DNA of 64,000 bases from an uncultured Conexibacteraceae bacterium (lineage in GTDB: Bacteria > Actinomycetota > Thermoleophilia > Solirubrobacterales > 70-9), in the NCBI GenBank assembly GCA_964464285.1, contig CAYXFL010000001.1, positions 46,897-110,896 of the forward strand, read 5' to 3'. Positions 14,130-52,633 of this stretch are shown piece by piece (position 1 is the stretch's first letter; each line of letters starts with the position of its first letter). The notes under the pieces are model-generated. The model ran no database searches. It saw only the letters and a program-made list of their open reading frames with translations, and was not told the DNA's origin. The translations under genes were made by a program, and so were the position numbers.

Positions 14130-14164
14130 GCCGCCGCCGGGCGCGGCCCGGCTAGATTGGCGCC

Positions 14165-19090: not shown

Positions 19091-19150
19091 GCGAAGGTCA
19101 CTTTGGGCGGACAGTCCTGCATTCCGGGCACAGTAGTGATTGCGCCCGGC

Positions 19151-20422: not shown

Positions 20423-20440
20423 TCGGCCCCCGCAGGCGGT

Positions 20441-21520: not shown

Positions 21521-21556
21521 GCGAGGCTGCAACCCTACCCACTGCGGAAAGGTGCT

Positions 21557-22486: not shown

Positions 22487-22495
22487 CGCGCTGGC

Positions 22496-25781: not shown

Positions 25782-25846
25782 CGGGTGCAAGCCTGACAGG
25801 TAAACCGCCGCTCGCCCCACCCGAATCTGAAGGTAGCCTCCACCCC

Positions 25847-27966: not shown

Positions 27967-28817
27967 GCGAGCCGCCACGACCGATCGGACCGCTGCGCGA
28001 GGTGACCGGGCCGTCGGCGCTCGGCGGCGGCACCCAGCGCTTCTTCAGCCTGCTCTGGCTGCTCGGGGTGACCGAGTTCAAGCGCACCTACTTCGGCACC
28101 GTGCTCGGCTACATCTGGTCGCTGATCCGGCCGCTGGCGCTGTTCGGAGTGCTGCTCTTCGTCTTCACCAAAGTCTTCAAAATCGGCGCCGAGCTGCACA
28201 ACTACCCGGTCATCCTGCTGCTCGGGATCGTCCTCTACACGCTCTTTCAGGAAGCGACGCAGAACGCGGTCACCTCGGTCGTCCAGCAGGAGGCGATCGT
28301 CCGCAAGACCCAGTTCCCGCGCCTCGCGATCCCGCTCTCGACCGTGCTCACCAGCTGCTTCAACTTCGGGCTCAACCTGGTCATCGTCCTGGCCTTCATC
28401 CTCGCCTGGGGCGTCGACCCGACCTGGACCTGGCTGCTCTTCCCGTTCGCGGTCCTGGCGCTCGGGACGCTCACCTGCGCGATGAGCATGATCCTCTCGG
28501 TCCTCTACGTGCGCTTCCGCGACATCGCGATCATCTGGGTCGTGCTCGCGCAGGTGCTCTTCTACGCGACCCCGGTCCTCTACCCGATCGAGTTCCTCAA
28601 GGACGAAACGATCGAACGCATCCTGATGCTGAACCCCCTGGCGGTGATCTTCCAGCAGGTGCGCGTCTGGGTGATCGAACCAAGCGCCCCGACCGCCACC
28701 GAAGTGACCGGGGGCGGCATCTACCTGCTGCCGGCCGCGCTGATCTTCGTCGCCATCTGCATCTACGCGGTCTGGGTCTTCAGACGCGAGGCACCGCGGA
28801 TCGCCGAGGACATCTAG
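27963..28817 (+). CDS. wzm: ABC-2 type polysaccharide exporter permease (Wzm/TagG-type)
   Basis: Six hydrophobic segments, ABC-2 family appearance, ATGA overlap with wzt. Confidence 0.88.
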   Translation: MSEPPRPIGPLREVTGPSALGGGTQRFFSLLWLLGVTEFKRTYFGTVLGYIWSLIRPLALFGVLLFVFTKVFKIGAELHNYPVILLLGIVLYTLFQEATQNAVTSVVQQEAIVRKTQFPRLAIPLSTVLTSCFNFGLNLVIVLAFILAWGVDPTWTWLLFPFAVLALGTLTCAMSMILSVLYVRFRDIAIIWVVLAQVLFYATPVLYPIEFLKDETIERILMLNPLAVIFQQVRVWVIEPSAPTATEVTGGGIYLLPAALIFVAICIYAVWVFRREAPRIAEDI

Positions 28818-35683: not shown

Positions 35684-37807
35684 CTACCGGCGCGGCACCA
35701 GGCGGACGAGTTCGAGGCCCGAGGGGTCGACCCGAACCGGGACGAAGCGGAAGCGCCGCTGCAGGACGTCGAGCGCCGCGAGCTGAATCGAGAAGAACTC
35801 CGGCTGCGCGCCGGGCACCGGCGGGGAGGGCTCTGAGGTGAGCAGGACGGTTCCGGCGGGCACCCGCTCGGCGGCTGCTTCGACGCGCTCCCCGCTGGAC
35901 TCGATCAGGTCGTCCTCGGCGGCGTGTGAGATCGGCAGGACGTTGCGGCGGTCGGCGTCGAGCAGGATCTGCGTGGTCAGGTCCGAGCCGGCGATCACCA
36001 GCGCCGGCTCGCCCGGCGGCAACTGCTCGGCCAGCAGCGCCGTCCCGACCGGGACACGGGGGTCCAGCACGGGGTTGTCGGCCATCGCGCCCACCGCGCT
36101 GCCGAGCGTCCCCCCGCCCGGGGCGAGCAGCCCGAGGGCGGTGGATCCCCGCTTCGCTTCGAACGCGGGCCAGGCGGCGACCGCGATCATCGCCATGCCC
36201 AGCGCCAGCGCGCCGGCCGCCCCGGTGCGCCACCACGATCTCCCGGCCAGCAGCACCTGCATCCAGAGCGCGCAGATCGCGACCACGGGAACGAGCAGGA
36301 CGAGCAGGTTGTTGGGGTGGGAGCGGCCCAGGTAGTAGGTGAAGGCGAGGATCGCGAACCCGGTGAAGCCGGCGAGCGCCGTCCGCATCGCCGGCGCGAG
36401 CGCGGCGGGGGACGCGCGCACCAGCCAGAGCAGCATCACCGCGCTGGCGAACAGCACCGCCGCCATCAGCGGCCCCGCCGAGAAGAACTGGATCGAGACC
36501 TGCGAGAGGCCGTCGACCGAGTAGAGCGTCAGGTACTCGACGTACGGGCCCCAGTCGAGGTGCCCGCTCAGCACCAGGGTGGCGAGGCTGAAGGCAGCGA
36601 ACGCGGCGGCGCTGACGGCGAGGCCGACGAGGGCGGCGCGGAGGACGCGGCGGCCGGCGCCGTCCCCGGCGGCCAGCGCCTCGACCAGGACCAGGGCGCC
36701 GAAGGTCCCGGCGGCGTAGGCGAAGGTCTCGAGGCTCCAGACCGCGGCCAGCGCCAGCAGCGCGAGCACGGCGATCCGGCTGGGCCGCGCCAGGCGGGGG
36801 GCCGTCGCCCCGAGGACCGCGGCGAGAACCATCAGGTAGGGAATCCCGAAGCGCAGCGGCGAGGTGCTCGGGAAGACGACGTAGGCGTCGAGCGTGGCGA
36901 ACAGGTTGCCCAGCGCGGCGACCGCGATCGCGATCATCGTGAGCAGGAAGCCGAGGCCGGCCAGGCGCAGGATCGCGTAGACGCAGAGGTACAGGAGCGC
37001 GGTCAGGATCACGACGCCGAGCGCCAGCGTCCCGAACCCGATCGGGACCACCTTGAAGGCCAGGCCGAGCGCGTCGATCAAGCCGACGCCGTACTGCGAC
37101 CAGGCGGTGCCCACCATCGCCTGACCGTGGGCGACGTCGTTGGCCGGGCCGAGGAAGTAGAGGTGGTGGATCCAGAGGTTGCCCGAGTAGGGCACGAGGC
37201 CGGGGAGCTGGACCACGACCAGGACGATCGCCACGCAGGCGAGCAGCTCGAGCGCGGCGCGCGCCGTTCGCGACAGGGAGAGGGGGCGGCGCAGCCGCAG
37301 CGCCAGAACCGCGAGGGTGGCCAGGGCCAGGGCCGGCAGCAGCGCCGCGGGCTCCAGCGCACCGCGAGGCACGAACAGCAAGATCACGAAGACGGCCGAG
37401 AGCACGCTGACCACGCGCGCCAGCTCGCGCTCGCGGTCGTCCGGGTCGACCCAGAGCCGGGCGGCGAGGAACGGCGCACCCAGTGCGACCAGAGCCGCCA
37501 GCGCTAGAACGGCGTGGTGGAGCGCGTCGCCGGCACCCGTGCGCCGCACCAGGAAGGCGAGCGCGAGCGCGAGCAGGCCGACCGCGAGGCCGCGGGCCGC
37601 GGCCGCCGGCGCCGCGGCCGCGAGAACGCGCTCCTGACGGGCGGCGAGGAGCAGGCCGCCGGGAAGGGCCAGCGCGAGCACCAGGGCCCAGGCGCGGGTC
37701 TCGCTCGACTTCGACGCGCCGGCGGCGAGCACCAGCAGGCCGACCGCGAGGATCGCGAGGGCAGCGCAGGCAAGCAGGCGCAGAGCTCCGGCGTCGAGTG
37801 CCGCCAT
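35684..37807 (-). CDS. large polytopic membrane protein with C-terminal soluble domain (GT-C-like candidate)
   Basis: An AAGGAG lies just upstream of ATG 37807 (MAALDAG...); the track ORF extends to 37885. It has many TM segments and a C-terminal soluble region of about 130 aa. Confidence 0.6.
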   Translation of the reverse strand: MAALDAGALRLLACAALAILAVGLLVLAAGASKSSETRAWALVLALALPGGLLLAARQERVLAAAAPAAAARGLAVGLLALALAFLVRRTGAGDALHHAVLALAALVALGAPFLAARLWVDPDDRERELARVVSVLSAVFVILLFVPRGALEPAALLPALALATLAVLALRLRRPLSLSRTARAALELLACVAIVLVVVQLPGLVPYSGNLWIHHLYFLGPANDVAHGQAMVGTAWSQYGVGLIDALGLAFKVVPIGFGTLALGVVILTALLYLCVYAILRLAGLGFLLTMIAIAVAALGNLFATLDAYVVFPSTSPLRFGIPYLMVLAAVLGATAPRLARPSRIAVLALLALAAVWSLETFAYAAGTFGALVLVEALAAGDGAGRRVLRAALVGLAVSAAAFAAFSLATLVLSGHLDWGPYVEYLTLYSVDGLSQVSIQFFSAGPLMAAVLFASAVMLLWLVRASPAALAPAMRTALAGFTGFAILAFTYYLGRSHPNNLLVLLVPVVAICALWMQVLLAGRSWWRTGAAGALALGMAMIAVAAWPAFEAKRGSTALGLLAPGGGTLGSAVGAMADNPVLDPRVPVGTALLAEQLPPGEPALVIAGSDLTTQILLDADRRNVLPISHAAEDDLIESSGERVEAAAERVPAGTVLLTSEPSPPVPGAQPEFFSIQLAALDVLQRRFRFVPVRVDPSGLELVRLVPRR

Positions 37808-37936
37808 CGGCTCCTTCCGCGCTGGCCGGGCCACCTTCTTCGCGCCACTGGTCCGGTACCGAACAGATGCCGTATCGATCGCCAAGCGCGCAACCCTATA
37901 GGGATCGCCGGTAACCTCCCCGAGCGCTCGAACGAC

Positions 37937-39329: not shown

Positions 39330-40403
39330 CTATGCCGGGGCCGCCGTCCAGCGCTCGAGGTTCTGCTCGTACATCTCCTGGAGGATCTCCTCGATCCCGT
39401 AGCGCAGCTCGAAGTCCGGGTAGTCGGCTTCGAACGGGGCCAGGTCGGAGATCCACCAGCGGTGGTCGCCGATCCGCGGCTCCTCGCCCATCTCCCACTG
39501 CAGCTGGCGGCCGGCGACCCGCTCGCAGACGTCGATCGCCTCCAGCATCGAGCAGTTGGAGAAGCGGCCGCCGCCGATGTTGTAGACGGCGTGGGCGCGC
39601 GGCGCCTTGCGGAAGGCGTCGAAGGCGGCGATCAGGTCGGCGCTGTGGATGTTGTCGCGGACCTGCTTGCCCTCGTAGCCGAACACCGTGTACGGGGTGC
39701 CGGTGACGGTGCACTTCATCAGGTAGGCGAGGAAGCCGTGCAGCTTCGCGCCGGCGTGCTGGGGGCCGGTCAGGCAGCCGCCGCGGAAGCAGACGGTGGG
39801 CATCTCGAAGTAGTACCCGTACTCCTGCACGAGCAGGTCGGCGGCGGCCTTCGAGACCCCGAACAGCGAGTGGGTCGCGGTGTCGATCGACATCGAGGTG
39901 TCGATCCCCTTGTAGTAGGGATGGTCCTCGGGCAGCTCCAGCCGCTTCTCCAGCGACTGCAGCGGCAGCCGGTTCGGCGTGTCGCCATAGACCTTGTTGG
40001 TCGAGCAGAAGATGAACGGCGCCTCGAGGCAGTGGGCGCGCGCCGCCTCGAGCAGGTTGAGGGTGCCGTTGGCGTTGACGCCGAAGTCGGTCTGCGGGTC
40101 GCTCGCGGCCCAGTCGTGCGAGGGCTGGGCGGCGGTGTGGACGACCAGCTCGATGTTGCCGGCGTGCTTGGCGAAGATCCGCTCGACCGCGGCGGTGTCG
40201 CGGATGTCGGCGTTCTCCCAGTGGAAGCTGGAGTGCTCGGAGACCAGCCGCTCGGTCACGTGCGAGGTCGAGGACTCGGGGCCGAAGAAGCTGGCCCGCA
40301 TGTCGTTCTCGATCCCGACCACGTCGAAGCCCTCGGCGATGAAGTGCTCGACCGCCTCGGAGCCGATCAGCCCCCCCGCTCCCGTGATGATCGCAACCGG
40401 CAT
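39330..40403 (-). CDS. NAD-dependent sugar epimerase/dehydratase (extended SDR; CDP-paratose 2-epimerase-like by eye)
   Basis: [29 protein letters not shown] (YxxxK equivalent region) and [15 protein letters not shown]. Confidence 0.75.
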
Positions 40404-40430
40404 CTCGCTCGCTCTCTCTTCTCAGTTGGC

Positions 40431-41498
40431 TTAGACGTTCAGCGCGGCCGCGATCCGCTCCGGATCGGAGGCCACCCACGCGTGTATATCGGTCAACACC
40501 TGCCGGGCGCTTCGACGCGGCCGCCACCGGTCGAGCTCGAACAGCCGCGCGCAGTCGGACAGGTAGATCGGGACGTCGCCCTGGCGCGTCTCCAGGACCG
40601 GCTCGATCGGCACCTCGTTGCCGGTCAGCTCCTGGCAGATCGCCGTCGTCTCCTGCAGCGAGAGCGAGCACTCGCGGCCGCCGCCGACGTTGACGGTGCG
40701 CCCGTTCCACTCCTCCGGGGCGAGCAGCTGGCGCTCGACCAGCTCGACCAGGTCCTCGACGTGGAGCAGGTCGCGGACCTGCTTGCCGGTGCCGCCGAAG
40801 CCGATGTAGGTGAGCGGCTTGGAGAACTGGTGGGCGAGCATCCAGTGGGTGAAGACCCCCTGGTCGACCTTGCCCATCTGCCAGGGGCCGGCGATCACGC
40901 CGCAGCGGTCGATCACCGCGGGCACCCCGAGGGCGCCGCGGAACTCCTCGATCAGCAGCTCGGCGGCGAGCTTGGTCGCCCCGTAGAGGGTGCGCTCGCC
41001 ATCCAGCGGGAAGGCCTCGGAGATCCCGGCCGGGGAGACCCCCGGCAGCGCCTGCTCGGCGGCGATCTCGAACCGCGTCTCCGCCTCCTCGAGCTCGATC
41101 TCGAGCTGCGGGGCGACCGGGTAGACGCGGCTGGTCGAGAGGAAGACGAGGAAGGCGCCGTCGCGGCGGGCCAGCTCGAGGCAGTTGTAGGCGCCGGTCA
41201 GGTTGGTGTGGACGAGGTAGCCGGTCTCGCCGTCGACACCGCTCATCACCGAGGGCTCGGCCGAGCACTCGATCAGGGCGTCGATCGTCCCCAGCTTTGC
41301 CAGCTCCTGCGGCTCGCGCACGTCGCCGCGCACGAACTCGACTCCGGCCTCGGCCAGGCGCGGCAGGTTCAGTTCGGAGCCGCGCCGGTAGAGGTTGTCG
41401 AAGGCGACGATCTCCCAGTCAGCGTGGCGCTCGGCCAGCGAGACCGCGAGGTTCGAGCCGACGAACCCGGCGCCGCCGGTGATCAGGAGGCGCTTCAC
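40431..41498 (-). CDS. NAD-dependent sugar epimerase/dehydratase (extended SDR)
   Basis: LLITGGAGFVGSNL, STSRVY and YGATKLAAE (YxxxK). GTG start at 41498. Confidence 0.8.
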   Translation of the reverse strand: MKRLLITGGAGFVGSNLAVSLAERHADWEIVAFDNLYRRGSELNLPRLAEAGVEFVRGDVREPQELAKLGTIDALIECSAEPSVMSGVDGETGYLVHTNLTGAYNCLELARRDGAFLVFLSTSRVYPVAPQLEIELEEAETRFEIAAEQALPGVSPAGISEAFPLDGERTLYGATKLAAELLIEEFRGALGVPAVIDRCGVIAGPWQMGKVDQGVFTHWMLAHQFSKPLTYIGFGGTGKQVRDLLHVEDLVELVERQLLAPEEWNGRTVNVGGGRECSLSLQETTAICQELTGNEVPIEPVLETRQGDVPIYLSDCARLFELDRWRPRRSARQVLTDIHAWVASDPERIAAALNV

Positions 41499-41528: not shown

Positions 41529-43499
41529 CTAACTTCCCCCACCGGTGGCCGAGGGTTTCGGCAGCAGGAATTCGTAAGCGCCGACCGAGGCCGCGGTCTC
41601 GAAGTTGTCGAGCACGTAGTTGGTCAGCGGCGTATCGGGAGCCGGTTCGCCGTGCAGGTAGGGAGCCGCCAGCTCGTCGTTGCGGATCGCGCAGGGCTTC
41701 GGCGAGGCGCTCAGGTCTTCCACCGCCTGCCGCTGCTGGGCGTCGTCGAGCGCGCTGAACCAGGCGTTCGGTGGCTGCGGCCGCGGCGCCGGCAGCTCCG
41801 ACCACAGGTACATGCTGCCGACGGTTGGGAAGCCGATGAAGGTCGTGCACCCGTTGGCGCGCAGGAGGCCGACCAGGCGCTCGTAGCTTTCCGCCGTTTC
41901 GGGGGGGACCCGCATCAGCGACGCGCCGGGCAGGTCGAGCTTCGCCAGGCTGCGGTGGTTGTTGATCGCGGTGGCGCCGGGCAGCAGGACCGCGACCAGG
42001 ACGAAGAGCCCGGCCAGGGCGACGCCAGCCACCGTCAGCGTGCCGGCCAGCCGCCGCGCCCGCTCGCCGGCGCCGCCGGCGAAGACCGCGCGCAGCTCGG
42101 TCGTCGCGTCGGCCAGGCAGAGCGCCCCGACGGTGACGAAGCTGACCGAGGCGATCCCAAGCTGGCTGCCGGGAACCGGGTAGACCTGGAGGGTCTCGGC
42201 GACCGCCAGGGCCGGCAGCAAGACGCGCAGGAAGCGCTTGTACTGGGTCTCCTCGACCCCGGCCGGCGGGATCACCGCGATCCAGGCGAGCAGCATCGGG
42301 ACGATCACCGGGTTGGCGCTGGAGGGGTTGAGCCCGACGACGACGATGTGGGCGACCGTTAGCCAGATCGCCAGCCCGGCCAGCGCCCGTAGCAGCGCCG
42401 ACCAGAGCGCCGGACGGCCGTCCGGGCTGCGCAGGACCCGGGTCGCGACGAACGAGGCGGCGAGCGCGCCGACCGCCCAGGTCAGCACCGTCACCTGCGG
42501 GAACGGGGTCTGGCCGAGCAGCAGATCGCGGATCCCGAGCGCCTTGGTGATGATCCCTTCGTAGGCGTCGCCGAGCGAGGGACCGGTGAGCAGGAGGACA
42601 AGGACGATCGCGACGATCGCGACCGCGAACCCGGCGACGCCGCCGAGCAGGACGCGGAGCAGCGGCCGGTCAGGGCCGGTCGGCCGCAGCGGCCGGGCGG
42701 CGACCAGCACGCTGCCCAGCGCCAGCATCACCAGGAGCGTCAGTTCACGCGCCCAGCCGAGGTCGAGGTCGCGGTTGATGACGGCCAGCGGCAGGGCCAG
42801 GAGGGCCGCGCCGACCAACCAGCGGACCCAGGCCCGGCCGGCGAACGGCCAGGCCGTGAAAGCGGCGGCCGCGACCGCGGCGGCGATCGCGAAGATGCCA
42901 AGGTTGACCTTGGTCAGGAGCAGCGCCGCGAGCAGCGCTCCGCACCCGGCCCCGAGCCAGAGCGGCCGCTTCGAGGGCCCGCGGACGGCCAGCAGGGCGA
43001 AGGCGCCGAGCAACAGGACGCAGAGACCCTGGGGGTGCATGGGCTCGTTGGCGAGCACCCCGAGCGAGCCGAAGGCGGCGACCATGGCGGTCAGACCGAG
43101 CGGCAGGCTGCGGGTCAGCCGCTGGGCGGCGAGGCCGAAGAGGAGGCTGGTCCCGACCCAGACCAGGAGCACCACGGTGCGCGAGGAGTCGGTGCTGACG
43201 TCGAGCCCGAACAGCGAGAAGAGGCCGCCGAAGAACTCGTAGTAGAAGGGGCCGTAGACCGACCAGACGTCACGGTAGAGCGGGTCGCCGTCGAGGAAGG
43301 CACGCAGGGTGATCAGCAGAGTGCCCTCGTCGTCGTAGGACGCGAAGGTGGTGAAGATCGTGAAGTAGGCGGTGACCGTGGCGGCGATCGCGACCACCGC
43401 GTAGGCGGCCACCGAGGTCAGCTCGGGGTTGCGATCGGCCAGCTCCTGAATGCGGCCAAACGGCTTCTCCGGCCGGGGCTGTCCTGAGCGCTCGGTCAC
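41529..43499 (-). CDS. large polytopic membrane protein, GT-C-like (acidic DDE motif in first loop)
   Basis: 656 aa. FASYDDEGTLLITLRAF follows TM1, resembling the GT-C D/E-x-D/E loop. At least 13 TM segments and a C-terminal soluble domain. Confidence 0.6.
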   Translation of the reverse strand: MTERSGQPRPEKPFGRIQELADRNPELTSVAAYAVVAIAATVTAYFTIFTTFASYDDEGTLLITLRAFLDGDPLYRDVWSVYGPFYYEFFGGLFSLFGLDVSTDSSRTVVLLVWVGTSLLFGLAAQRLTRSLPLGLTAMVAAFGSLGVLANEPMHPQGLCVLLLGAFALLAVRGPSKRPLWLGAGCGALLAALLLTKVNLGIFAIAAAVAAAAFTAWPFAGRAWVRWLVGAALLALPLAVINRDLDLGWARELTLLVMLALGSVLVAARPLRPTGPDRPLLRVLLGGVAGFAVAIVAIVLVLLLTGPSLGDAYEGIITKALGIRDLLLGQTPFPQVTVLTWAVGALAASFVATRVLRSPDGRPALWSALLRALAGLAIWLTVAHIVVVGLNPSSANPVIVPMLLAWIAVIPPAGVEETQYKRFLRVLLPALAVAETLQVYPVPGSQLGIASVSFVTVGALCLADATTELRAVFAGGAGERARRLAGTLTVAGVALAGLFVLVAVLLPGATAINNHRSLAKLDLPGASLMRVPPETAESYERLVGLLRANGCTTFIGFPTVGSMYLWSELPAPRPQPPNAWFSALDDAQQRQAVEDLSASPKPCAIRNDELAAPYLHGEPAPDTPLTNYVLDNFETAASVGAYEFLLPKPSATGGGS

Positions 43500-43548: not shown

Positions 43549-44358
43549 ATGTCGCGCATGAACGCAAGCGAGCGGGAGCGCTACGCCGACGCGATCCGCC
43601 GGACGATCATCGACCAGTCCTACCGGGCAGGGGTGGGGCACATCGGCTCCGCGCTCTCGATCGCCGACCTCGTCGCCGCCGTGATCGGGGGTGCCGCGGG
43701 CGCCGACGTCGGTGCTGACCGCGATCGGGTCGTCCTCTCCAAGGGCCACGCGGCGCTGGCGCTGTACGCGGCGCTGCATCACGACGGCCGGCTCGAAGAC
43801 GGCGCGATCGACACCTACTGCGGCGAGGGCACGCTGCTCGGCGTCCACCCCGAGCACGGTCTCGAGGGGGTCGACTTCTGCACCGGCTCGCTCGGCCAGG
43901 GCCTCTCGCTCGGCGCCGGCGCCGCGCTCGCCGGCAAGCGCCACGGCTCCGGCCGGCGGGTCTTCGTGATCATGAGCGACGCCGAGCTCAACGAGGGCTC
44001 GACCTGGGAGGCGGTGATGTTCGCCGCCCAGCACCGGCTCGACAACCTCCACCTGGTGATCGACCTGAACGGCCAGCAGGCGCTCGGCTACACGCCCGAC
44101 ATCCTCGACCTCGGCGCCGTCGAGGAGAAGCTCGCCGCCTTCGGCTGGAGCGCCGAACGGGTCGCCGGGCACGACCAGGAGGCGCTCGGCGCGGCGCTTG
44201 CGAAGAGCGCACCCGGCCAGCCCCGCGCGCTGGTCGCCGAGACCACCTTCGGCTACGGCGTCTCCTTCATGGAGTCCGAAATCAAGTGGCACTACCTGCC
44301 GCTCGACGAGCAGACCTACGCCACCGCCTGCTCCGACCTCGAGGCGGCGGCCGCATGA
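43549..44358 (+). CDS. transketolase, N-terminal (ThDP pyrophosphate-binding) subunit
   Basis: GHIGSALSIADL, LSKGHAALALYA, GSLGQGLSLGAG and VIMSDAELNEGSTWEA are canonical for the transketolase N-terminal section. Confidence 0.88.
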   Translation: MSRMNASERERYADAIRRTIIDQSYRAGVGHIGSALSIADLVAAVIGGAAGADVGADRDRVVLSKGHAALALYAALHHDGRLEDGAIDTYCGEGTLLGVHPEHGLEGVDFCTGSLGQGLSLGAGAALAGKRHGSGRRVFVIMSDAELNEGSTWEAVMFAAQHRLDNLHLVIDLNGQQALGYTPDILDLGAVEEKLAAFGWSAERVAGHDQEALGAALAKSAPGQPRALVAETTFGYGVSFMESEIKWHYLPLDEQTYATACSDLEAAAA

Positions 44359-45278
44359 GGAACGAGTTCGTCGCGGAGCTGGTCGAGCTCGCCGAGGCCG
44401 ACGAGCGGGTGATGCTGCTGACCGGCGACCTCGGGTTCATGGTCCTCGAAGAGTTCGAGCGGCGCTTCCCCGACCGCTTCATCAACTGCGGGGTCGGCGA
44501 GCAGAACATGCTCGGCGTGGCAACCGGGCTGGCCGAGGCCGGCTTCGTCCCCTTCGCCTACTCGATCGCCACCTTCTCGGCCCTGCGCCCCTACGAGTTC
44601 ATCCGCAACGGCCCCGCCCTGCACGACCTGCCGGTGCGGATCGTCGGGGTCGGCGGCGGCTTCGACTACGGCCACAACGGGATCACCCACTTCGCCCTCG
44701 AGGACTACGCGGTGATGCGCGCCCAGCCGGCGGTCGCGACCGTCGCCCCGGCCGACGCGGCGCAGGCGCGGACCGCAGTGCAGGCGACCGCGAACCACGC
44801 CGGGCCGATCTACTACCGGGTCAGCAAGCGCGGCGACAGCCTGCCCGGCCTCGACGGCCGCTTCGAGCTCGGCCGGCTCGAGCTCCTCCGCGAGGGCGCC
44901 GACGCGGCGATCCTCGCGATCGGCTCGATCGCCCACGAGGCGGTCGCCGCCGCCGAGCAGCTCGCGGCCGCCGGCATCGAGGTCAGCGTCGCCCTCGTCT
45001 CCTCCTTCAACCCGGCCCCGATCGAGGAAATCTCCGCCCTGCTCGCCGGCGTCCCCGCGGCGCTCACCGTCGAGGCCCACTACCGCAACGGCGGCCTCGG
45101 CTCGCTGGTTGCCGAGACGATCGCCGAGCAGGGCCTCGAGTGCCGCCTCCTGCGCGCCGGCGTCGAGACGATGCCGCGCGGCGAAGCCGGCTCCCAGGCC
45201 CACCTCGAGGACCGCCACCAGCTGACCGCTCCGCACCTCGCCGAGCGCCTCCAGCGGGTCCTCAGCCTCAGTGCCTGA
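44355..45278 (+). CDS. transketolase, C-terminal (pyrimidine-binding plus C-terminal domain) subunit
   Basis: FINCGVGEQNMLGVATGLA, FSALRPYEFIRN and GITHFALEDYAVMR. ATGA overlap with the N-terminal subunit gene. Confidence 0.88.
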   Translation: MRNEFVAELVELAEADERVMLLTGDLGFMVLEEFERRFPDRFINCGVGEQNMLGVATGLAEAGFVPFAYSIATFSALRPYEFIRNGPALHDLPVRIVGVGGGFDYGHNGITHFALEDYAVMRAQPAVATVAPADAAQARTAVQATANHAGPIYYRVSKRGDSLPGLDGRFELGRLELLREGADAAILAIGSIAHEAVAAAEQLAAAGIEVSVALVSSFNPAPIEEISALLAGVPAALTVEAHYRNGGLGSLVAETIAEQGLECRLLRAGVETMPRGEAGSQAHLEDRHQLTAPHLAERLQRVLSLSA

Positions 45279-45331
45279 ACCGGGCTGCGTCACCGGCGCG
45301 TACCGGGATGACGACGGATAGGCTCCGCGCG

Positions 45332-46354
45332 ATGAAGATCTCCGCAGTCATCGCCTGCTACCGCGACGAGCCGGCGGTCCCGATCATGCACGAGCGCCTG
45401 GTCGCCGCCTTCGCCGAGATCGGCTGCGAGTACGAGATCATCTTCGTCAACGACGGCTCGCCCGACGAAGCGGGCCGCGTGCTCGCCGAGCTGGCCGAAC
45501 GGGACCCGGGCGTGGTGGTGATCAACCACGCGCGCGCCTTCGGCTCCCAGAGCGCCTTCACCTCGGGGATGAGGATCGCCACCGGCGACGCCGTGGTGCT
45601 GCTCGACGGCGACCTCCAGGACCCGCCGGAGATGATTCCCAAGTTCGTCGAGAAATGGCGCGAGGGCTACGACGTGGTCTACGGCAAGCGGGTCCAGCGC
45701 GAGGCACCGCGGCACATGCAGCTCTTCTACAAGGGCTTCTACCGCGTCTTCAAGCGGCTCGCCTACGTCGACGTCGCGGTCGACGCGGGGGACTTCAGCC
45801 TGATCGACCGGCGCGTGGTCGACGCGATGAACGCGATGCCCGAGTCCCACCGCTTCCTGCGCGGGCTGCGCGCCTGGGTCGGGTTCAAGCAGATCGGCGT
45901 GCCCTACGTCCGCCCGGAGCGGATGTTCGGCACGACCACCAACAGCTTCCGCAAGAACATGGGCTGGGCGCGGCGCGCGATCGTCTCCTTCTCCTACGCC
46001 CCGCTCGACCTGATCACCGGCGTCGCCCTGGTGGTCACCGCCGCCTCCTTCGTCAGCCTGATCGTGCAGCTTGCCCTGCGCATCGCCGCGCCCGGCACGG
46101 CGCCGCCGGGGATCACCACGCTGATCGTCATCGTCCTCTTCCTCGGCGGCATCCAGCTGCTCTGCCTGGCGATCATCGGCACCTACCTCGGGCACATGTA
46201 CGAGGAGGTGAAGCGCCGGCCGGCCTTCGTGGTCGAGTCGGTGCTCAACCGGCCAGAGGGCCAACCGGCGCCGGGCCACGGGGGGGTTGCCCAACCGCCG
46301 TCGCCGTCGCCGTCCAGCCCAGGCAGTCCACCGAGCCGTCCCGGCGCAGGCTGA
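45332..46354 (+). CDS. GT2 polyprenyl-phosphate glycosyltransferase (GtrB/ArnC-type with two C-terminal TM helices)
   Basis: ISAVIACYRDE, IIFVNDGSPD, VLLDGDLQDPPE and two C-terminal TM segments. An alternative ATG lies at 45308. The P/S-rich tail overlaps the convergent gene. Confidence 0.85.
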   Translation: MKISAVIACYRDEPAVPIMHERLVAAFAEIGCEYEIIFVNDGSPDEAGRVLAELAERDPGVVVINHARAFGSQSAFTSGMRIATGDAVVLLDGDLQDPPEMIPKFVEKWREGYDVVYGKRVQREAPRHMQLFYKGFYRVFKRLAYVDVAVDAGDFSLIDRRVVDAMNAMPESHRFLRGLRAWVGFKQIGVPYVRPERMFGTTTNSFRKNMGWARRAIVSFSYAPLDLITGVALVVTAASFVSLIVQLALRIAAPGTAPPGITTLIVIVLFLGGIQLLCLAIIGTYLGHMYEEVKRRPAFVVESVLNRPEGQPAPGHGGVAQPPSPSPSSPGSPPSRPGAG

Positions 46355-47072
46355 GCCCGCCGACCAGGGCGAGGCCGGCGACCAGCGGCGAGAGCAGCAG
46401 CGCCGCCAGCCGCCGCGGGCCGAACCCGCCCCCGGGCGGGAGCAGCGCGGGCAGCAGCAGCGCCATCGCCTTGTAGGCGGCGACGGTGAGCTCGTTGCCG
46501 CGCGCGGTCACCACCGGGTCGCCGAAGCCGTTGCCCTCCAGCATCGTGCGCAGGCTCGAGGGGGTGAAACGCCAGTAGTCGTGTGGCACGTAGTGCCAGC
46601 GGGCGGCGAAGGGCACGGTCAGGATCAGCCGCCCGCCCGGACGCAGCACGCGCCGCGCCTCGGCGAGGAAGGCGGACGGTTCCGGCACGTGCTCGAGCGT
46701 CTCGGTCGCCAGCACCAGGTCGACCGCCGCGTCCTCGACCGGCCAGGTCTCGCCCTCGAAATACTCGGTGTCGGGCACGTCGTAGCCGAACGCCTCGCGG
46801 GCCAGGACCGAGTCGATCGCCCGGTAGCTGGCTGTCGCCGGGACCAGCGGCCGGTAAGGCTGGGCACCGGCGCCGACGTCGAGCACGACCCCGCGCGCGT
46901 CGCCCAGCTCGCACCTCAGATCGGCCCAGATCGACGCCGCCTGCAGGTCGAAGCGGCGGCGCGCAGCCGCGGTCAGGCGCCCACGCAGGCCCCGCCCGCC
47001 GTGGAAGCCGGGTGGCTGCCAGGGCTCGGCGCTGCGGTGGACGAGGTTCTCGCGCTGGGCCCGCTCAGGCAC
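46245..47072 (-). CDS. class I SAM-dependent methyltransferase with C-terminal hydrophobic tail
   Basis: VLDVGAGAQPY (motif I), LVLATETLEHV and LRPGGRLILTVP. GTG at 47072 overlaps the upstream stop (GTGCCTGA). Confidence 0.7.
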   Translation of the reverse strand: MPERAQRENLVHRSAEPWQPPGFHGGRGLRGRLTAAARRRFDLQAASIWADLRCELGDARGVVLDVGAGAQPYRPLVPATASYRAIDSVLAREAFGYDVPDTEYFEGETWPVEDAAVDLVLATETLEHVPEPSAFLAEARRVLRPGGRLILTVPFAARWHYVPHDYWRFTPSSLRTMLEGNGFGDPVVTARGNELTVAAYKAMALLLPALLPPGGGFGPRRLAALLLSPLVAGLALVGGLSLRRDGSVDCLGWTATATAVGQPPRGPAPVGPLAG

Positions 47073-47997
47073 GTACGCCCCAGGCGAGCATGTTGCCGAC
47101 GGGGACGGTGAGCGGGCGGGCGGCCAGCCCGCTGCGCTCCAGTCCCCTCGACAAACCGCCGGCCAGCCGCTCGGGGAGCGGGGCCAACCTCGCCCAGTAA
47201 CGCACCGGGTAACGGTTGCGGATCGGCTCCTGGCCGACCTCGCGAAGTTCGCCGCGCCGCAGGAGCTCGGCGATGCTCTGGGGGGAAAAGAGCTGCATGT
47301 GCTCGACGTCCATGATCGGCGACCGCATACCCAGGGTGCGGTTGATCCATGCACGGCGGTTGTGGCAGACGATCGCCAGGATCCCGCCCGGCTTCAGCAG
47401 CTCGGCCGCGGCGGCGACGAAGGCGGCCGGGTCGGGCACGTGCTCGATCGTCTGGAAGCAGGTGATCAGGCTCAGCGTGCCGGGCTCGCGCAGGCCGGGG
47501 CGGAAGACGTCGTGCTCGATCAGCGGCGCGATCTCCGGCGCCGCCTCTTCGATCGGCGCGGTCGAGGGCTCGACCCCGCCGACCGCGGTGAAGCCGAGCC
47601 GCAGCAGCTCGGCGAGGAAGGCGCCCTCGCCGGTGCCGACGTCGATCGCGCCGTCGCGGTCGGGCAGGCGCCCCAGCAGCGGGGCGAGCGCGTCGGCGTA
47701 GGTGCGGGCCGCGAAGCGGGCCTCCTCGCCGCTGTCGAAGGCGGCCGCCTCATAGGCACCGGCCAGCGCCTCGGGGGCGGGCAGCGGGCTCGCGTAGGCG
47801 AGGTCGCAGTCGGGGCAGCGGACCAGCCGCAGGCGCATCCGCTCGGGCCGCTTGCGGGAGGCGAAGGCGTGCTCGCCGAGCGCCTCGAGGTCGAGCCGCT
47901 GGGTCGCGAAGAGGTCGGCGTCGTCGCGCGAGCCGCAGATCGGGCAGGCGCGCTCGGTCATCTGCCCGAGCAGGTCGGAGGCGGGGCCGGCGCTCAC
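47065..47997 (-). CDS. SAM-dependent methyltransferase with N-terminal Cys4 zinc-ribbon
   Basis: CPICGS...CPDCDL zinc ribbon, followed by IDVGTGEGAFL (motif I), ITCFQTIEHV and LKPGGILAIV. Confidence 0.75.
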   Translation of the reverse strand: MSAGPASDLLGQMTERACPICGSRDDADLFATQRLDLEALGEHAFASRKRPERMRLRLVRCPDCDLAYASPLPAPEALAGAYEAAAFDSGEEARFAARTYADALAPLLGRLPDRDGAIDVGTGEGAFLAELLRLGFTAVGGVEPSTAPIEEAAPEIAPLIEHDVFRPGLREPGTLSLITCFQTIEHVPDPAAFVAAAAELLKPGGILAIVCHNRRAWINRTLGMRSPIMDVEHMQLFSPQSIAELLRRGELREVGQEPIRNRYPVRYWARLAPLPERLAGGLSRGLERSGLAARPLTVPVGNMLAWGVRA

Positions 47998-48086
47998 GGG
48001 CGCCAGGATATGGGATCGCGGCGGCTCTCTAATATTGCCGCCGTGCGCGGGGAGAGCCCAGAGACCTCAGACGCGGTCGGCGCCCG

Positions 48087-49058
48087 GTGAGGGCGGTCGT
48101 CACCGGCGCCGGCGGGTTCGTCGGCGCCAACCTCGCCTCCTCCCTGCTGGCGGCCGGCCACGAGGTGGTCGCCTGGACCCACCCGGGCGGCTCGGAGTGG
48201 CGCCTCGACCACCTGCGCGGCGAGCTCGAGGTGGCCCCGGTCGAACTGCTCGACCCGGAGGCGATCGAGGCCGGCGTGAAGAGCGCCCGACCCGACTGGG
48301 TCTTCCACCTCGCCGCCCACGGCGCCTACTCCTGGCAGCGCGACGCGGAGCGGATCCTGCAGACCAACCTGGTCTCCACCGTCCACCTGCTGGCGGCCTG
48401 CCAGCGCCACGGCTTCGAGTCGTTCGTCAACGCCGGGTCCTCCTCGGAGTACGGGTTCCAGGACCACGCTCCGAAGGAGTCCGAGCTGCCCGAACCGAAC
48501 AGCGACTACGCGGTGATGAAGGCGGCCGCGACCCTGCACTGCCGCTTCGTCGCCCAGCGCGACGACGTCCACGCCGTCACCCTGCGCCTCTACTCCGTCT
48601 ACGGCCCCTGGGAGGAGCCCGGCCGGCTGATGCCGACCCTGGTCGCCCGCGGCCTCGAGGGCGGGCTGCCGCCGCTCGTCTCCCCCGACACCCCGCGCGA
48701 CTACATCAGCGTGCGCGACACCGACCGCGCCTTCCTGCAGGCCGCCGAACGCACCGACCTCGAGCGCGGCTCCGTCTTCAACATCGGTTCCGGCCGCGAA
48801 ACGAAGCTGCGCGAGGTGGTCGAGGTGTGCCGCGCCGAGATGGGCGTCGAGGCGGAGCCCGAGTGGGGCACCGAGCCGCCCCGCGCCTGGGATGCCGCGG
48901 TCTGGGTCGCCGACCCGGCCCGCGCCCGCGAGAGCCTCGGCTGGCAGGCCGAGGACGACCTCGCGACCGGCTTCGGGGCGCTGGCCGAGTGGCTGCGCGA
49001 GCACCGAGAGCTCTGGGGCCGCTACGAGATCGGGACGGCGGGCGCGGTCGGCGGCTAG
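48087..49058 (+). CDS. NAD-dependent sugar epimerase/dehydratase (extended SDR)
   Basis: VVTGAGGFVGANL, GSSSEYG and YAVMKAAAT (YxxxK). GTG start. Confidence 0.8.
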   Translation: MRAVVTGAGGFVGANLASSLLAAGHEVVAWTHPGGSEWRLDHLRGELEVAPVELLDPEAIEAGVKSARPDWVFHLAAHGAYSWQRDAERILQTNLVSTVHLLAACQRHGFESFVNAGSSSEYGFQDHAPKESELPEPNSDYAVMKAAATLHCRFVAQRDDVHAVTLRLYSVYGPWEEPGRLMPTLVARGLEGGLPPLVSPDTPRDYISVRDTDRAFLQAAERTDLERGSVFNIGSGRETKLREVVEVCRAEMGVEAEPEWGTEPPRAWDAAVWVADPARARESLGWQAEDDLATGFGALAEWLREHRELWGRYEIGTAGAVGG

Positions 49059-50245: not shown

Positions 50246-50301
50246 TTCTTTGGTACGAAATGGGGCCGGTTCCGGGATCGCCGCTCGACTATGTTTCGCC
50301 C

Positions 50302-51945
50302 ATGCAGAGGGGGGCTGCAGCGTGCGGGGCGCTGGGGAGATACGACCCCGGACGGGTGGAGCGGATGGCCGCGCTGTGCGGCGGCGAGGCTCCGCGACCG
50401 GTGCACACGGACGAGAGCTCGATCCTCTTCCTCGACCGCGAGCCACTGCGCTGGCAGGGAGCCCGCGGCCACGGGCTCGCCTGGCTCGGCACCGACGCCT
50501 GGAACGACACCCGGCCCGACGACTGGAAGGGAGCCGCCCGGGCCGGCGCCAACGGGCTGGTGATCGAGGGGCGCAAGCGCTTCCTGCACAGCTCGGTGAG
50601 CGGCCTGGCGCCGCTCTACTGGCTCGACGACGGCGGCGCGACCTACTTCTGCTCGCGCCTGGACCCGCTGGTGCGCGCGGCCGGCCGGCGCTTCTCGCTC
50701 GACTGGGAAGCCTGGGCGGCGATCATCGCCCTGCGCTTCCCACTCGGCCAGCGCACCCCGTTCGCCGAGGTGCGGCGGCTCGAGCAGTTTGCGACCCTGG
50801 GCCGGCGCCTCGGCCGCGGCCGCTCGCGCTCGCACCGCTGGCCCTGGGCCGAGGTCGAGCCGCTCGCCGGGCTCGACGCCGCCGCCGACGCCGCCGTGGA
50901 GGGCATGCGGCAAGCGCTCGCCGGCGTTCCCGCCGGGGTCGTCTGCCCGCTCAGCGGCGGCCGCGACTCGCGGATGCTGTGCGCGATCCTCGCCGCCGAC
51001 GGGCGCGCCGGGGGAGCGATCACCGCCGCCGACGACGAGGGGGAAGCGATCGAGGAGGACCTGGCCGCGGCCGTCGCCGGCTACTACGGCCTGCCGCACG
51101 AGCGGCTCGCCGGCGCGGCCGCCGACTACCGGGCCGACTGGGAGGAGCGGGCACGAAGGGTCGAGCACCAGTTCGTCGACCACGCCTGGCTGATGCCCGC
51201 GGTGCGGCGCCTGGAAGGCGACCCGGCGCCGCTGCCCGACGGCTTCGGGATCGACATCTTCGTCCAGTCCGAGCGCCACTTCAATCCGCCCGAGGCGCTC
51301 TACGCGACGGACGGACGCGCCGCCGCCCTCGCCCTGCTCGAGGCGCTGCGCCGCTACGGCGCAACCCAGATGGCGCTCGCGCCCGAGTTCCGCGAGCCGC
51401 TGCTGGAGCGCGTCCGCGACCAGTTCCTCGCCGCGGTGCGACCGCTCGAGGGCCACCCGTCCCAGAACGTACTCTCGGTCTACGCGACCCGCTCGCGCCG
51501 CGGCGTCGGCTCCTACGCCGCCGGGCTGTGGGGCGACGGCGGCCAGGTCCTCGCCCCCGGCGCCGGCGACGAGGTCGTCTGCGCGACCCTCTCGGCCAGC
51601 CAGCGCGAAAAAGACGACGGCCGCCTCTACGAGGCGATCTTCGCCCGCATCGCCCCCGATGTCGGCCGCCTGCCCTCGACCACCAACACCGCGCGCAGCG
51701 GCCCCGCCCTGCCGCGCCGCTGGCGCTCGCAGCCGGCGCTGGAGATGCACCGCGAGCTGCTCGCCGAGGGTCCGCTGGCACCCCACCTCTCAGCCGAGCT
51801 GCGGGCCTGGCTCGAGCGGCCCGGCGGCGCCGAGCTGCCCGGCGACCTGCGGCTGGGGATGGAGGGTGTGAGCCTGTTGCACAGCTGGTGGCGGCGCTAC
51901 CGCGACCTCCTCTCCCCCACCGACGCCACCGCCCTCCGCGGCTGA
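50302..51945 (+). CDS. asparagine synthetase B-like PP-loop ATP pyrophosphatase lacking the N-terminal Cys nucleophile
   Basis: SGGRDS PP-loop at 50953-50970. The N-terminus MQRGAAACG... has no Met-Cys Ntn glutaminase start. Overall AsnB-like length. Confidence 0.65.
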   Translation: MQRGAAACGALGRYDPGRVERMAALCGGEAPRPVHTDESSILFLDREPLRWQGARGHGLAWLGTDAWNDTRPDDWKGAARAGANGLVIEGRKRFLHSSVSGLAPLYWLDDGGATYFCSRLDPLVRAAGRRFSLDWEAWAAIIALRFPLGQRTPFAEVRRLEQFATLGRRLGRGRSRSHRWPWAEVEPLAGLDAAADAAVEGMRQALAGVPAGVVCPLSGGRDSRMLCAILAADGRAGGAITAADDEGEAIEEDLAAAVAGYYGLPHERLAGAAADYRADWEERARRVEHQFVDHAWLMPAVRRLEGDPAPLPDGFGIDIFVQSERHFNPPEALYATDGRAAALALLEALRRYGATQMALAPEFREPLLERVRDQFLAAVRPLEGHPSQNVLSVYATRSRRGVGSYAAGLWGDGGQVLAPGAGDEVVCATLSASQREKDDGRLYEAIFARIAPDVGRLPSTTNTARSGPALPRRWRSQPALEMHRELLAEGPLAPHLSAELRAWLERPGGAELPGDLRLGMEGVSLLHSWWRRYRDLLSPTDATALRG

Positions 51946-51970
51946 CCGCGCGGGCGCCAAACTGTGGCGC

Positions 51971-52633
51971 ATGTCTCGACCGACGGATCGCGACGCCCCC
52001 GCCGCGCCGCTCCCGGGTGAAGCCCATCTCTGGCTCGCCGACCTCGATGCGGCGGCGGAGCCGCCGGACGGGGTGCTGAGCGCGGCCGAGCGCGAACGCG
52101 CCGCGGGAATCCGCGCGGCCGTCGACGCCCGTCGCTGGGCGACCTCGCGCTGGGCGCTGCGCGAGGTCCTCGCCCGCTACCTCGGGGTGGCGGGGAGCGC
52201 GATCGAGCTGGCCCGCGGCGAGCACGGCAAGCCGCGGCTGGCCGCCGCCCCGGCGCCGCTCGAGTTCAACCTCAGCCACTCGCACGGGCGCGTCCTGGTC
52301 GGGGTCGCCGCCGCCGGCCAGCCGCTCGGGGTCGACATCGAGCGGATCGTCCCGCGGCGCGACTTCCTCGCGCTCGCCCGCCGGGCGCTCGGCGAGGCCG
52401 AGGCCGAGGCGATCGCCGCCGCCCCGCAGGAGCGCCGCGCCGGCCTCTTCTACGCCGCCTGGACCGCCCACGAGGCGCACCTGAAGTGCGGCGGTGGCGG
52501 CTTCGGCGTCGCCGCCCCCACGGGCACGCCGGGCGCGCGGCCGGTAGACGTCGGTGACGGCTACGCGGCGGCCTTCGCGCTCGCCGCCGCCGGCGACCCG
52601 CGCGGGCGGCTCTACCGGCTCGACCTGCGCTGA
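51971..52633 (+). CDS. Sfp-type 4'-phosphopantetheinyl transferase
   Basis: HGKPRL, FNLSHSHG, GVDIERI and WTAHEAHLK are the canonical Sfp/EntD family motifs. Confidence 0.8.
   Translation: MSRPTDRDAPAAPLPGEAHLWLADLDAAAEPPDGVLSAAERERAAGIRAAVDARRWATSRWALREVLARYLGVAGSAIELARGEHGKPRLAAAPAPLEFNLSHSHGRVLVGVAAAGQPLGVDIERIVPRRDFLALARRALGEAEAEAIAAAPQERRAGLFYAAWTAHEAHLKCGGGGFGVAAPTGTPGARPVDVGDGYAAAFALAAAGDPRGRLYRLDLR

Follow-up and report, generated by a model that had tools for sequence, protein, structure and literature searches.

Introduction

Enzymes that use thiamine diphosphate (ThDP) to add a short carbon branch to C4 of a nucleoside diphosphate (NDP)-4-keto-deoxyhexose are known from surface-glycan pathways, with YerE of yersiniose A biosynthesis in Yersinia pseudotuberculosis and the YerE-like enzymes ErwE, JanthE, MMAR_2332 and MygE as examples (PMC12247030). 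Here we describe a split transketolase (TK) pair, TktN/TktC, which resembles them in this respect as far as its proposed role goes, and which is encoded in a glycan locus of an uncultured Conexibacteraceae bacterium (GenBank assembly GCA_964464285.1, contig CAYXFL010000001.1, positions 46,897 to 110,896; this whole stretch of 64,000 nucleotides is hereafter called the window). In the yersiniose pathway the branch ketone is reduced by YerF after the YerE step. For the window we propose, at what we judge to be an even chance of being right, that a ThDP enzyme and reductase pair would put a two-carbon unit on an NDP-4-keto sugar, which would then be loaded onto a lipid carrier and transferred by a glycosyltransferase (GT) of the GT-C type. 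Part of this proposal is that TktN/TktC would have been drawn from central metabolism into the tailoring of sugars.

The comparison with YerE has limits. YerE is a single polypeptide of the decarboxylase (acetolactate-synthase-like) superfamily and uses pyruvate, whereas TktN/TktC is a two-subunit member of the TK family that is known here from genes alone. AviB1/AviB2 and KbDH-alpha/beta are likewise heteromeric ThDP enzymes that act on a keto deoxysugar and produce a two-carbon branch in antibiotics (PMC12247030), but they are of the pyruvate dehydrogenase E1 type and use pyruvate, and the window proteins score far better as TK. A further parallel is offered by the split TKs of the miharamycin and amipurimycin clusters of Streptomyces, whose proposed passing of a hydroxyacetyl unit onto a keto sugar is called "still pending" in the part of PMC12247030 that treats them; the only other cases given there are 13 further split TKs predicted in silico from Streptomyces sequences. 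As in the window, those split TK genes lie in a sugar-tailoring cluster next to an oxidoreductase (PMC12247030, section 2.3). By description, which is the only basis of this comparison, they belong to nucleoside-antibiotic clusters and to Streptomycetes only (PMC12247030, same part), whereas the cassette of the window has relatives in surface-glycan loci of many phyla and includes a lipid-carrier GT2 and a GT-C enzyme.

The canonical split TK of Carboxydothermus hydrogenoformans (6YAK/6YAJ) and human TK share the three-domain fold and the catalytic His/Glu set with the window pair, and the split enzyme is divided at the same point. They differ from it in the phosphate-binding Ser/His/Arg, the acceptor Asp and the GDG motif, all altered in the window pair, and in their setting, which is central metabolism and not glycan biosynthesis. 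An adaptation of a TK homolog to a non-phosphate substrate is known from SqwGH, the transketolase for sulfofructose in the sulfo-TK pathway (PMC9594981), and its gene letters suggest two subunits. SqwGH is catabolic, however; it cleaves a free sulfosugar, passes the ketol to glyceraldehyde-3-phosphate and has no glycan-biosynthesis context.

For the later steps the models are GtrA/B/C, ArnC/ArnT and the streptococcal GacI/GacL and PgfS/PgfM, in which, as proposed for the window, a sugar is first linked to polyprenyl phosphate by a GtrB-type GT2 and then handed on by a GT-C enzyme on the outside of the membrane; the streptococcal rhamnopolysaccharides add the likeness of a rhamnose polysaccharide and an ABC transporter context. 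These Gtr-like systems use a ready-made common UDP-sugar (4-deoxy-4-formamido-arabinose, Ara4FN, in the Arn pathway), whereas the window cassette has a ThDP enzyme, a short-chain dehydrogenase/reductase (SDR) and methyltransferases built in. In the openly accessible literature we found no characterised TK member in an O-antigen, capsule, S-layer or other surface-glycan locus, including by way of split transketolase and DUF4915/TIGR03032; a match from the capsular polysaccharide literature on Cobetia refers only to central metabolism. The TK-like pair belongs to a large uncharacterised enzyme clade; the kinds of system in which we place it, ThDP sugar branching and Gtr-like decoration, are already known.

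A split transketolase with a remodelled active site

Genes were called by third-codon-position GC frame analysis and translation (the window has about 72% G+C). The two subunit genes are:

43549-44358, plus strand: tktN, 269 amino acids; Pfam Transketolase_N (7e-30)
44355-45278, plus strand: tktC, 307 amino acids; Pfam Transket_pyr and Transketolase_C

The ATG of tktC overlaps the TGA of tktN as ATGA, by which tktC is predicted to be translationally coupled to tktN. All three TK-fold domains (PP, Pyr and C) are present across the two proteins according to Pfam. The nearest solved structures overall are the C. hydrogenoformans split TK and human TK, the closest match of TktN being the N chain of the former (6YAK, E 4e-40) and that of TktC being 6YAJ (E 1e-51). 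Against the best NCBIfam TK equivalog, NF004559, the subunits reach 207.6 and 176.3 bits (sum 384); the cut-off of this model is 488 and was defined on a fused protein, whereas the pair is split.

The window pair and 79 relatives were mapped onto 6YAK/6YAJ and human TK, and residues are given in human TK numbering. The window pair and no fewer than 75 of the 79 relatives retain equivalents of the catalytic His37, His77, His110, His258, Glu366 and His/Gln428. The substrate pocket is changed. In published TK structures Ser345, His416 and Arg474 bind the substrate phosphate together with Arg318, and Asp424 reads the acceptor 2-hydroxyl. Only the Arg318 equivalent of the four phosphate-site residues is retained in the window. 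Ser345 is replaced by Met (72/79 relatives), His416 by Gly (79/79) and Arg474 by Lys (73/79), in each case as in the window, and Asp424 has become Asn or Ala in 74 of the 79, with Asn in the window. The GDG of the ThDP motif reads SD[A/G] (SDA in the window), with Ser in all 78 of 78 close relatives; the Asp and Asn of the ThDP/Mg motif are retained in TktN, and some distant members still have GDG.

A wider search covered 1.84 billion protein clusters, of which the best 150 cluster representatives were inspected. The signature (Gly-Phe/Tyr-x, Gly, non-Asp) is present in these, down to 34% identity, and in 118 of 118 homologs of one distant representative. It is not a mark of split TKs as such: the residues of the C. 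hydrogenoformans enzyme of the pentose phosphate pathway (PPP) are canonical, and two catabolic split TKs borne on plasmids show other patterns at the same positions. On the evidence of these residues TktN/TktC can be classed as a split TK-family enzyme that is not the canonical pentose-phosphate TK, a canonical PPP role being disfavoured by the family-wide replacement of the acceptor Asp and of three phosphate-binding residues out of four.

The two plasmid-borne enzymes come from Cryobacterium sp. and Phaeobacter porticola (our loci L090 and L091) and lie in catabolic-looking clusters, with an aldolase, DhaKL, RpiB and a GntR regulator, or ABC transporters and aminotransferases, as neighbours; their deviations at the canonical phosphate-site residues are unlike those of the glycan clade. 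Domain fusions among the best 150 representatives were limited to fragmentary TK-C/GT2 read-throughs (P0374, P0357), probably artefacts of assembly or gene calling.

Conservation of the cassette across related loci

The genes around the pair are:

45332-46354, plus strand: GT2 of the GtrB type, 340 amino acids; Pfam Glycos_transf_2
46245-47072, minus strand: MT1, class I S-adenosylmethionine (SAM) methyltransferase, GTG start, 275 amino acids; Pfam Methyltransf_11/23
47065-47997, minus strand: MT2, SAM methyltransferase, 310 amino acids; Pfam Methyltransf_23 (1.6e-23)
48087-49058, plus strand: SDR_a, extended SDR, 323 amino acids; Pfam Epimerase (9e-46)
41529-43499, minus strand: polytopic membrane protein with predicted GT-C fold, 656 amino acids; divergent from tktN with a 49-nt spacer
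40431-41498, minus strand: SDR_b, extended SDR; Pfam Epimerase
39330-40403, minus strand: SDR_c, extended SDR; Pfam Epimerase

The gap between tktC and GT2 is 53 nt. The GT2 and MT1 frames converge and overlap by 110 nt (46245-46354), and MT1 and MT2 overlap by 8 nt. This layout confirms a reading made earlier from the letters of the window (the sequence-only reading). That reading had placed a split tktN/tktC with ATGA coupling inside a glycan locus, and our gene calls and Pfam domains agree with it. It had put a GtrB/ArnC-type GT2 with two transmembrane (TM) helices downstream of tktC, which is where we find a GT2 with similarity to GtrB (5EKP) and two hydrophobic segments, although at 53 nt and not at the 54 nt it had given. 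Two overlapping, convergent methyltransferase genes, one with a Cys4 motif, are there as described, with the Cys4 of MT2 kept in its orthologs, and the flanking extended SDRs (48087-49058 and 39330-41498) are matched by Pfam and NCBIfam.

Relatives were collected in a scan with one genome per species, which yielded 544; neighbourhood counts use the best 80 loci. Orthologs of the neighbours were identified by tblastn with the window proteins (SDR_a: at least 40% identity within 8 kb; GtrB-type GT2: at least 45% identity). The closest tktC homologs, at 74-89% identity, come from metagenome-assembled genomes of Solirubrobacterales. The best 80 loci span more than 10 bacterial phyla and comprise actinobacterial lineages (Solirubrobacterales, Gaiellales, Acidimicrobiia) as well as Chloroflexota, Acidobacteriota, Elusimicrobiota, Planctomycetota, Poribacteria, Dormibacterota, Melainabacteria, Nitrospirota, Myxococcota and Alphaproteobacteria. 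Predicted members of the whole clade reach Actinomycetota, Chloroflexota, Acidobacteriota, Planctomycetota, Bacillota, bacteria of the candidate phyla radiation (CPR) and DPANN archaea.

In 79 of the 80 loci tktN adjoins tktC. SDR_a has an ortholog near tktC in 61 of the 80 (47 of 54 when only loci with full flanks are counted); 38 of the 80 have a GtrB-type GT2 there, and GT2, SDR and methyltransferase occur together in 28. Clustering of all open reading frames (ORFs) separates two architectures, A and B, with 35 loci in each. Architecture A, that of the window, consists of the TK pair, a GtrB-type GT2, one or more methyltransferases and SDR_a, and has a large polytopic membrane protein near the cassette in 31 of 35 loci. 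Architecture B consists of the TK pair, SDR_a, a short GT2 (237 amino acids), DUF4915/TIGR03032 and a Sulfotransfer_3-like protein, and is often near a flippase-like LPG_synthase_TM protein or a PMT_2 GT-C. The two are intermixed in the tktC tree, in which the whole family stands apart from the canonical split enzyme. The invariant unit thus defined by gene content is the TK pair plus SDR_a, with the GT2/methyltransferase set as one of two common downstream options.

The adjacency of the TK pair to glycan genes recurs in dozens of loci from many phyla and is more than chance. Two expectations of the sequence-only reading can be judged on these counts. The tktN-tktC-GT2 trio is indeed co-conserved elsewhere, but the GT2 is not the tightest partner, SDR_a being more tightly coupled. 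The view of the pair as dedicated to its glycan locus is well supported, in that it is co-conserved with SDR, GT2 and methyltransferase genes well beyond this genome and its pocket is altered family-wide.

None of nucleotidyltransferase, kinase, UDP-glucose dehydrogenase and 4,6-dehydratase recurs in the nearest 80 loci (batch Pfam and tblastn); apparent RmlB matches there were cross-matches to SDR_a. A second TK gene was sought by tblastn in the window and in all 89 fetched loci, the only stretches that this search covered, and none turned up. Loci of architecture B are found among L011-L083 in our numbering (for example L016:9126-14700).

Distant relatives and a gene fusion in Paenibacillus

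Five contexts of distant members were examined (Brennerbacteria, Magasanikbacteria and other CPR or uncultured lineages), and all five are NDP-sugar pathways. DegT aminotransferases and extended SDRs are each present in 5/5, and nucleotidyltransferases, dTDP-sugar isomerases and TylC3-type C-methyltransferases also occur. Two of the five are bacillosamine-like, with a PglC-like transferase, the TK pair, DegT and a PglF-like 4,6-dehydratase. The TK genes in distant loci often overlap neighbouring SDR or DegT genes, and SDR_a orthologs (34-36% identity) stand directly upstream of tktN in two CPR loci.

The most informative relative is found in a cultured organism, Paenibacillus cellulosilyticus KACC 14175, where a plasmid (NZ_CP054609.1) carries a relative of the pair in a CDP-hexose cluster. 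The gene order is rfbF (glucose-1-phosphate cytidylyltransferase), rfbG (CDP-glucose 4,6-dehydratase), a TylC3-like C-methyltransferase, WP_110042955.1, TK-C, a TylF-type O-methyltransferase, a glycosyltransferase and a GT2/GtrA fusion. WP_110042955.1 (L089:10097-12004; 635 amino acids) carries no annotation beyond "SDR family NAD(P)-dependent oxidoreductase", yet its residues 19-247 form an extended SDR that is fused to Transketolase_N (383-612). Its SDR part is more distant from SDR_a (25.6% identity) and of the same Arg-Pro type, and the TK-C that follows and overlaps the fusion gene is 42% identical to the tktC of the window and has the same signature. Since the SDR::TK-N fusion stands just after the enzyme that produces CDP-4-keto-6-deoxyglucose, the SDR and the ThDP enzyme would act on the same molecule, and its position just after rfbG points to an NDP-4-keto sugar as the shared substrate. 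We regard this fusion, placed as it is, as the strongest available indication of both points. The neighbours of the Paenibacillus relative, a CDP-glucose cytidylyltransferase and a 4,6-dehydratase gene, are also those from which YerE is supplied. That a ThDP enzyme here tailors a keto nucleotide sugar, as had been suggested from the window alone, thereby gains strong indirect support from the NDP-sugar clusters and the fusion; the reaction itself we infer.

The Brennerbacteria glycan cluster among the distant loci (L084) contains two different split TK-like pairs, at 7174-8930 and 12733-14432. In the second the pocket departs even further, reading Trp-His-Val-Lys, Gly and Cys with Met for Arg474; this pair adjoins a classical SDR and a B12-radical SAM enzyme.

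The SDRs and the other enzymes of the cassette

The nearest structures to SDR_a are a GalE-type 4-epimerase (4ZRM), MoeE5 and Rmd (GDP-4-keto-6-deoxymannose reductase). It carries S118 and Y150-x3-K154, the Ser-Tyr-Lys set; at the positions that hold Asp-Glu or Ser-Glu in 4,6-dehydratases and decarboxylases it shows Ser-Ser. A role as dehydratase or decarboxylase was rejected, the positions of the RmlB Asp-Glu and of the Glu of UDP-xylose synthase being Ser-Ser. The Asp at the end of beta2, which binds the NAD ribose in GalE, is replaced by T31-H32 (family consensus x-R). These motifs suggest an NADP(H)-using enzyme of the epimerase/reductase type, most simply a ketoreductase. Orthologs of SDR_b and SDR_c are found only in close Solirubrobacterales relatives (L004, L006, L008 and L065), and both are best read as lineage-specific accessories. 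SDR_c has F-G-V-S-K at the expected catalytic YxxxK and may lack the catalytic Tyr; the motif of SDR_b is normal.

The GT2 matches Synechocystis GtrB (5EKP) with E 1e-66 over residues 2-303 and ArnC with E 3e-39. Its best NCBIfam scores, 249 bits for PgfS (cut-off 500) and 156 bits for ArnC (cut-off 529), are both below the cut-offs. Glycos_transf_2 covers residues 4-164, the DGDLQDPPE motif is kept in 39 orthologs, and C-terminal hydrophobic segments are at 231-249 and 264-282. The tail past about residue 305 is not conserved in orthologs, and its last 35 or so residues are rich in Pro, Ser and Gly. We assign the protein as a putative GtrB-type polyprenyl-phosphate glycosyltransferase that is no equivalog of the named PgfS or ArnC.

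MT1 has a hydrophobic segment at 222-240 and orthologs in 16 related loci; it is probably membrane-anchored through this one C-terminal helix. MT2 has orthologs in 28 related loci and begins with a zinc-ribbon-like Cys4 (C18-x2-C21 ... C61-x2-C64), which is kept in 27 sequences. It is weakly similar to the TylC3-like C-methyltransferase of the Paenibacillus cluster.

The divergent 656-amino-acid protein has no Pfam or NCBIfam match. It is composed of about 13 TM helices and a C-terminal soluble domain, and its AlphaFold model (pLDDT 85, pTM 0.88) retrieves GT-C enzymes for all of the top 20 Foldseek matches in the PDB (probability 1.00, TM-score 0.31-0.48), among them DPY19, ArnT, AglB, STT3, PglB and AftA. 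The predicted model has the GT-C fold, so that the label "GT-C-like" given to this gene beforehand can be kept. After the first TM helix follows YDDEGT, of which Y55-D56-D57-E58 is invariant in 30 homologs; this YDDE is the predicted acidic catalytic motif in the first extracytoplasmic loop. The enzyme presumably transfers a lipid-linked sugar outside the cytoplasm. Together with the GT2 it gives good support to the lipid-carrier and GT-C layout that had been read from the window.

Proposed pathway and alternative explanations

In the proposed pathway TktN/TktC would act as a unit with SDR_a. The ThDP enzyme would take a ketol donor, form the ThDP-bound two-carbon carbanion and add the two-carbon (glycolaldehyde-type) unit to the carbonyl of a nucleotide-activated keto sugar, at the 4-keto group. 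The likeliest acceptor would be an NDP-4-keto-6-deoxyhexose such as dTDP-4-keto-6-deoxyglucose, which RmlA and RmlB of the window could supply. SDR_a would then reduce the new side-chain ketone with NAD(P)H, which would yield a sugar that is C-branched or extended by two carbons. Methylation would follow through MT2 and/or the membrane-anchored MT1, and the GtrB-type GT2 would move the sugar onto polyprenyl phosphate. After flipping, the GT-C enzyme (41529-43499) would add it as a decoration to the exported, presumably rhamnose-containing polysaccharide. Donor, acceptor, regiochemistry, the order of methylation and lipid loading, and the final acceptor glycan are what we infer from gene content and from the analogies above.

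Several points weigh against this scheme. The clade is known from sequences alone, and its chemistry is deduced from them. The same holds for the cofactor preference of SDR_a and for the direction, oxidising or reducing, in which it would work. The equivalent of Arg318 and a Lys at the Arg474 position remain, which would fit a phosphorylated donor or acceptor. A crude hydropathy scan found no small multi-TM ORF in the window that would correspond to a GtrA-type flippase. The lipid-carrier step would not be universal to the TK/SDR pair, because architecture B, used by half of the relatives, lacks a GtrB-type GT2 and yet has the pair. And since 4,6-dehydratase and nucleotidyltransferase are not in the conserved core of the closest 80 loci, the acceptor must come from elsewhere in those genomes.

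One alternative is an ordinary TK, either a housekeeping PPP enzyme or a paralog that supplies pentose or heptose phosphate (for example sedoheptulose-7-phosphate) to the glycan locus. The fold and all catalytic residues of TktN/TktC are those of TK, split TKs serve as functional PPP enzymes in some organisms (6YAK/6YAJ), and tktC is highly conserved within Solirubrobacterales (74-89%). We nevertheless consider this explanation improbable. Family-wide, the stereo-determining Asp and all phosphate-binding residues except the Arg318 equivalent are replaced, and the subunits sum to 384 bits where the NCBIfam cut-off is 488. The pair never adjoins PPP genes and almost always adjoins an extended SDR and GT2s, genes for heptose or pentose activation are not conserved nearby in the nearest 80 loci, and the Paenibacillus pair is plasmid-borne and SDR-fused. 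It is moreover present in Planctomycetota, Alphaproteobacteria and Myxococcota, which generally have full-length tkt genes. The supply of a pentose or heptose phosphate, held in reserve by the sequence-only reading as the conservative alternative, is thus disfavoured in particular because the phosphate-binding Ser and His are lost, together with the Asp. A chance or merely regulatory adjacency, with no functional link of the TK pair to the glycan genes, could by no means be reconciled easily with the comparative data, which already contradict it: the adjacency is kept across more than 10 phyla, several loci show translational coupling with SDR, DegT or GT neighbours, and one relative is an SDR::TK-N gene fusion. 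We give it next to no credence.

Two further explanations keep the pair in sugar tailoring and change its chemistry or its timing. In one, the enzyme works like 1-deoxyxylulose-5-phosphate synthase (DXS) or YerE and takes pyruvate or another 2-oxoacid, so that decarboxylation would yield an acetyl or 1-hydroxyethyl (or longer) branch in place of glycolaldehyde. Both subunits match DXS models (TktC with 113 bits on TIGR00204, dxs), the donor/acceptor channel of the pair is altered, and the characterised sugar-branching ThDP enzymes, both the YerE-like ones and those resembling alpha-keto acid dehydrogenases, such as KbDH, all use 2-oxoacids (PMC12247030). The best matches are, however, by far TKs and not DXS. 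His37 and His258, the residues that contact the C1 hydroxyl of the donor in TK, are also kept, and we hold DXS-like chemistry to be unlikely. Only slightly less unlikely, in our estimate, is that the TK/SDR pair makes a small ketose, polyol or glycolyl-type substituent, or that it acts on a polyprenyl-phosphate-linked sugar after the GT2, as DprE1/DprE2 do on decaprenyl-phosphoribose. Action at the lipid-linked stage would fit a membrane-anchored MT1, and both variants would fit the lack of a conserved dehydratase or nucleotidyltransferase in the nearest 80 loci and the hydrophobic replacements in the phosphate site (Gly-Phe-Met-Val). They sit less well with the C-terminal domain of SDR_a, which is typical of nucleotide-sugar enzymes, and with the distant members and the Paenibacillus fusion, which lie inside complete NDP-sugar pathways; architecture B, which retains the TK/SDR pair without a GtrB-type enzyme, likewise counts against this explanation.

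The addition of a two-carbon unit to an NDP-4-keto sugar therefore remains the reading that we carry forward. TK is regarded as an enzyme of central metabolism, and the one part in sugar tailoring suggested for it, in two nucleoside antibiotics, still awaits proof. A distinct TK-like clade that is built into the glycan loci of a large share of bacterial lineages is of interest for this reason. With its diagnostic active-site signature, its conserved SDR partner and a fusion in a cultured, tractable Paenibacillus, the clade is a testable entry to new ThDP carboligation chemistry on nucleotide sugars and may lead to unknown monosaccharides in cell envelopes. The signature also provides a simple sequence rule against misannotation as "transketolase", for example in PPP calls for CPR genomes. 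A bolder generalisation, which we advance tentatively and trust somewhat less than the proposal for the window itself, is that the wide split TK-like clade, working with a dedicated extended SDR on NDP-4-keto sugars, represents a general and so far overlooked way in which sugars with a C-branch or a two-carbon extension arise in prokaryotic surface glycans. If true, many uncultured lineages would display monosaccharides that have never been described.

The wider window

Beyond the cassette the window encodes RmlA, RmlB, RmlD and a Wzm/Wzt ABC transporter with a Wzt_C domain, together with a GT1-GT2 fusion, several GT2s and methyltransferases and a PIG-V-like GT-C. Part of this set is grouped at 17259-28817 (RmlB, RmlD, PIG-V-like GT-C, RmlA, GT1-GT2 fusion, GT2, methyltransferase and Wzt/Wzm). 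The rmlA and rmlB genes lie about 22-26 kb from the TK pair and are not conserved in the nearest 80 loci. The window is probably an ABC-transporter-type locus for a rhamnose-containing cell-wall polysaccharide of an uncultured soil actinobacterium; the polysaccharide looks like one with a capped terminus and ABC-transporter-dependent export, and the locus carries several candidate enzymes for its extracytoplasmic decoration.

A few minor observations remain. The 669-amino-acid "RmlA" ORF is over-extended, its real start being near codon 311. Two polytopic proteins on the minus strand, at 33202-34950 (582 amino acids) and 35684-37885 (733 amino acids), have at least 12 hydrophobic segments each and no Pfam match, and are possibly further GT-C-type enzymes of the locus. 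On the plus strand, 50260-52633 encodes a 561-amino-acid protein that faintly resembles asparagine synthase and, after it, a 4'-phosphopantetheinyl transferase, both of them within the glycan locus; in one related locus (L002) a nonribosomal peptide synthetase gene adjoins the cassette.

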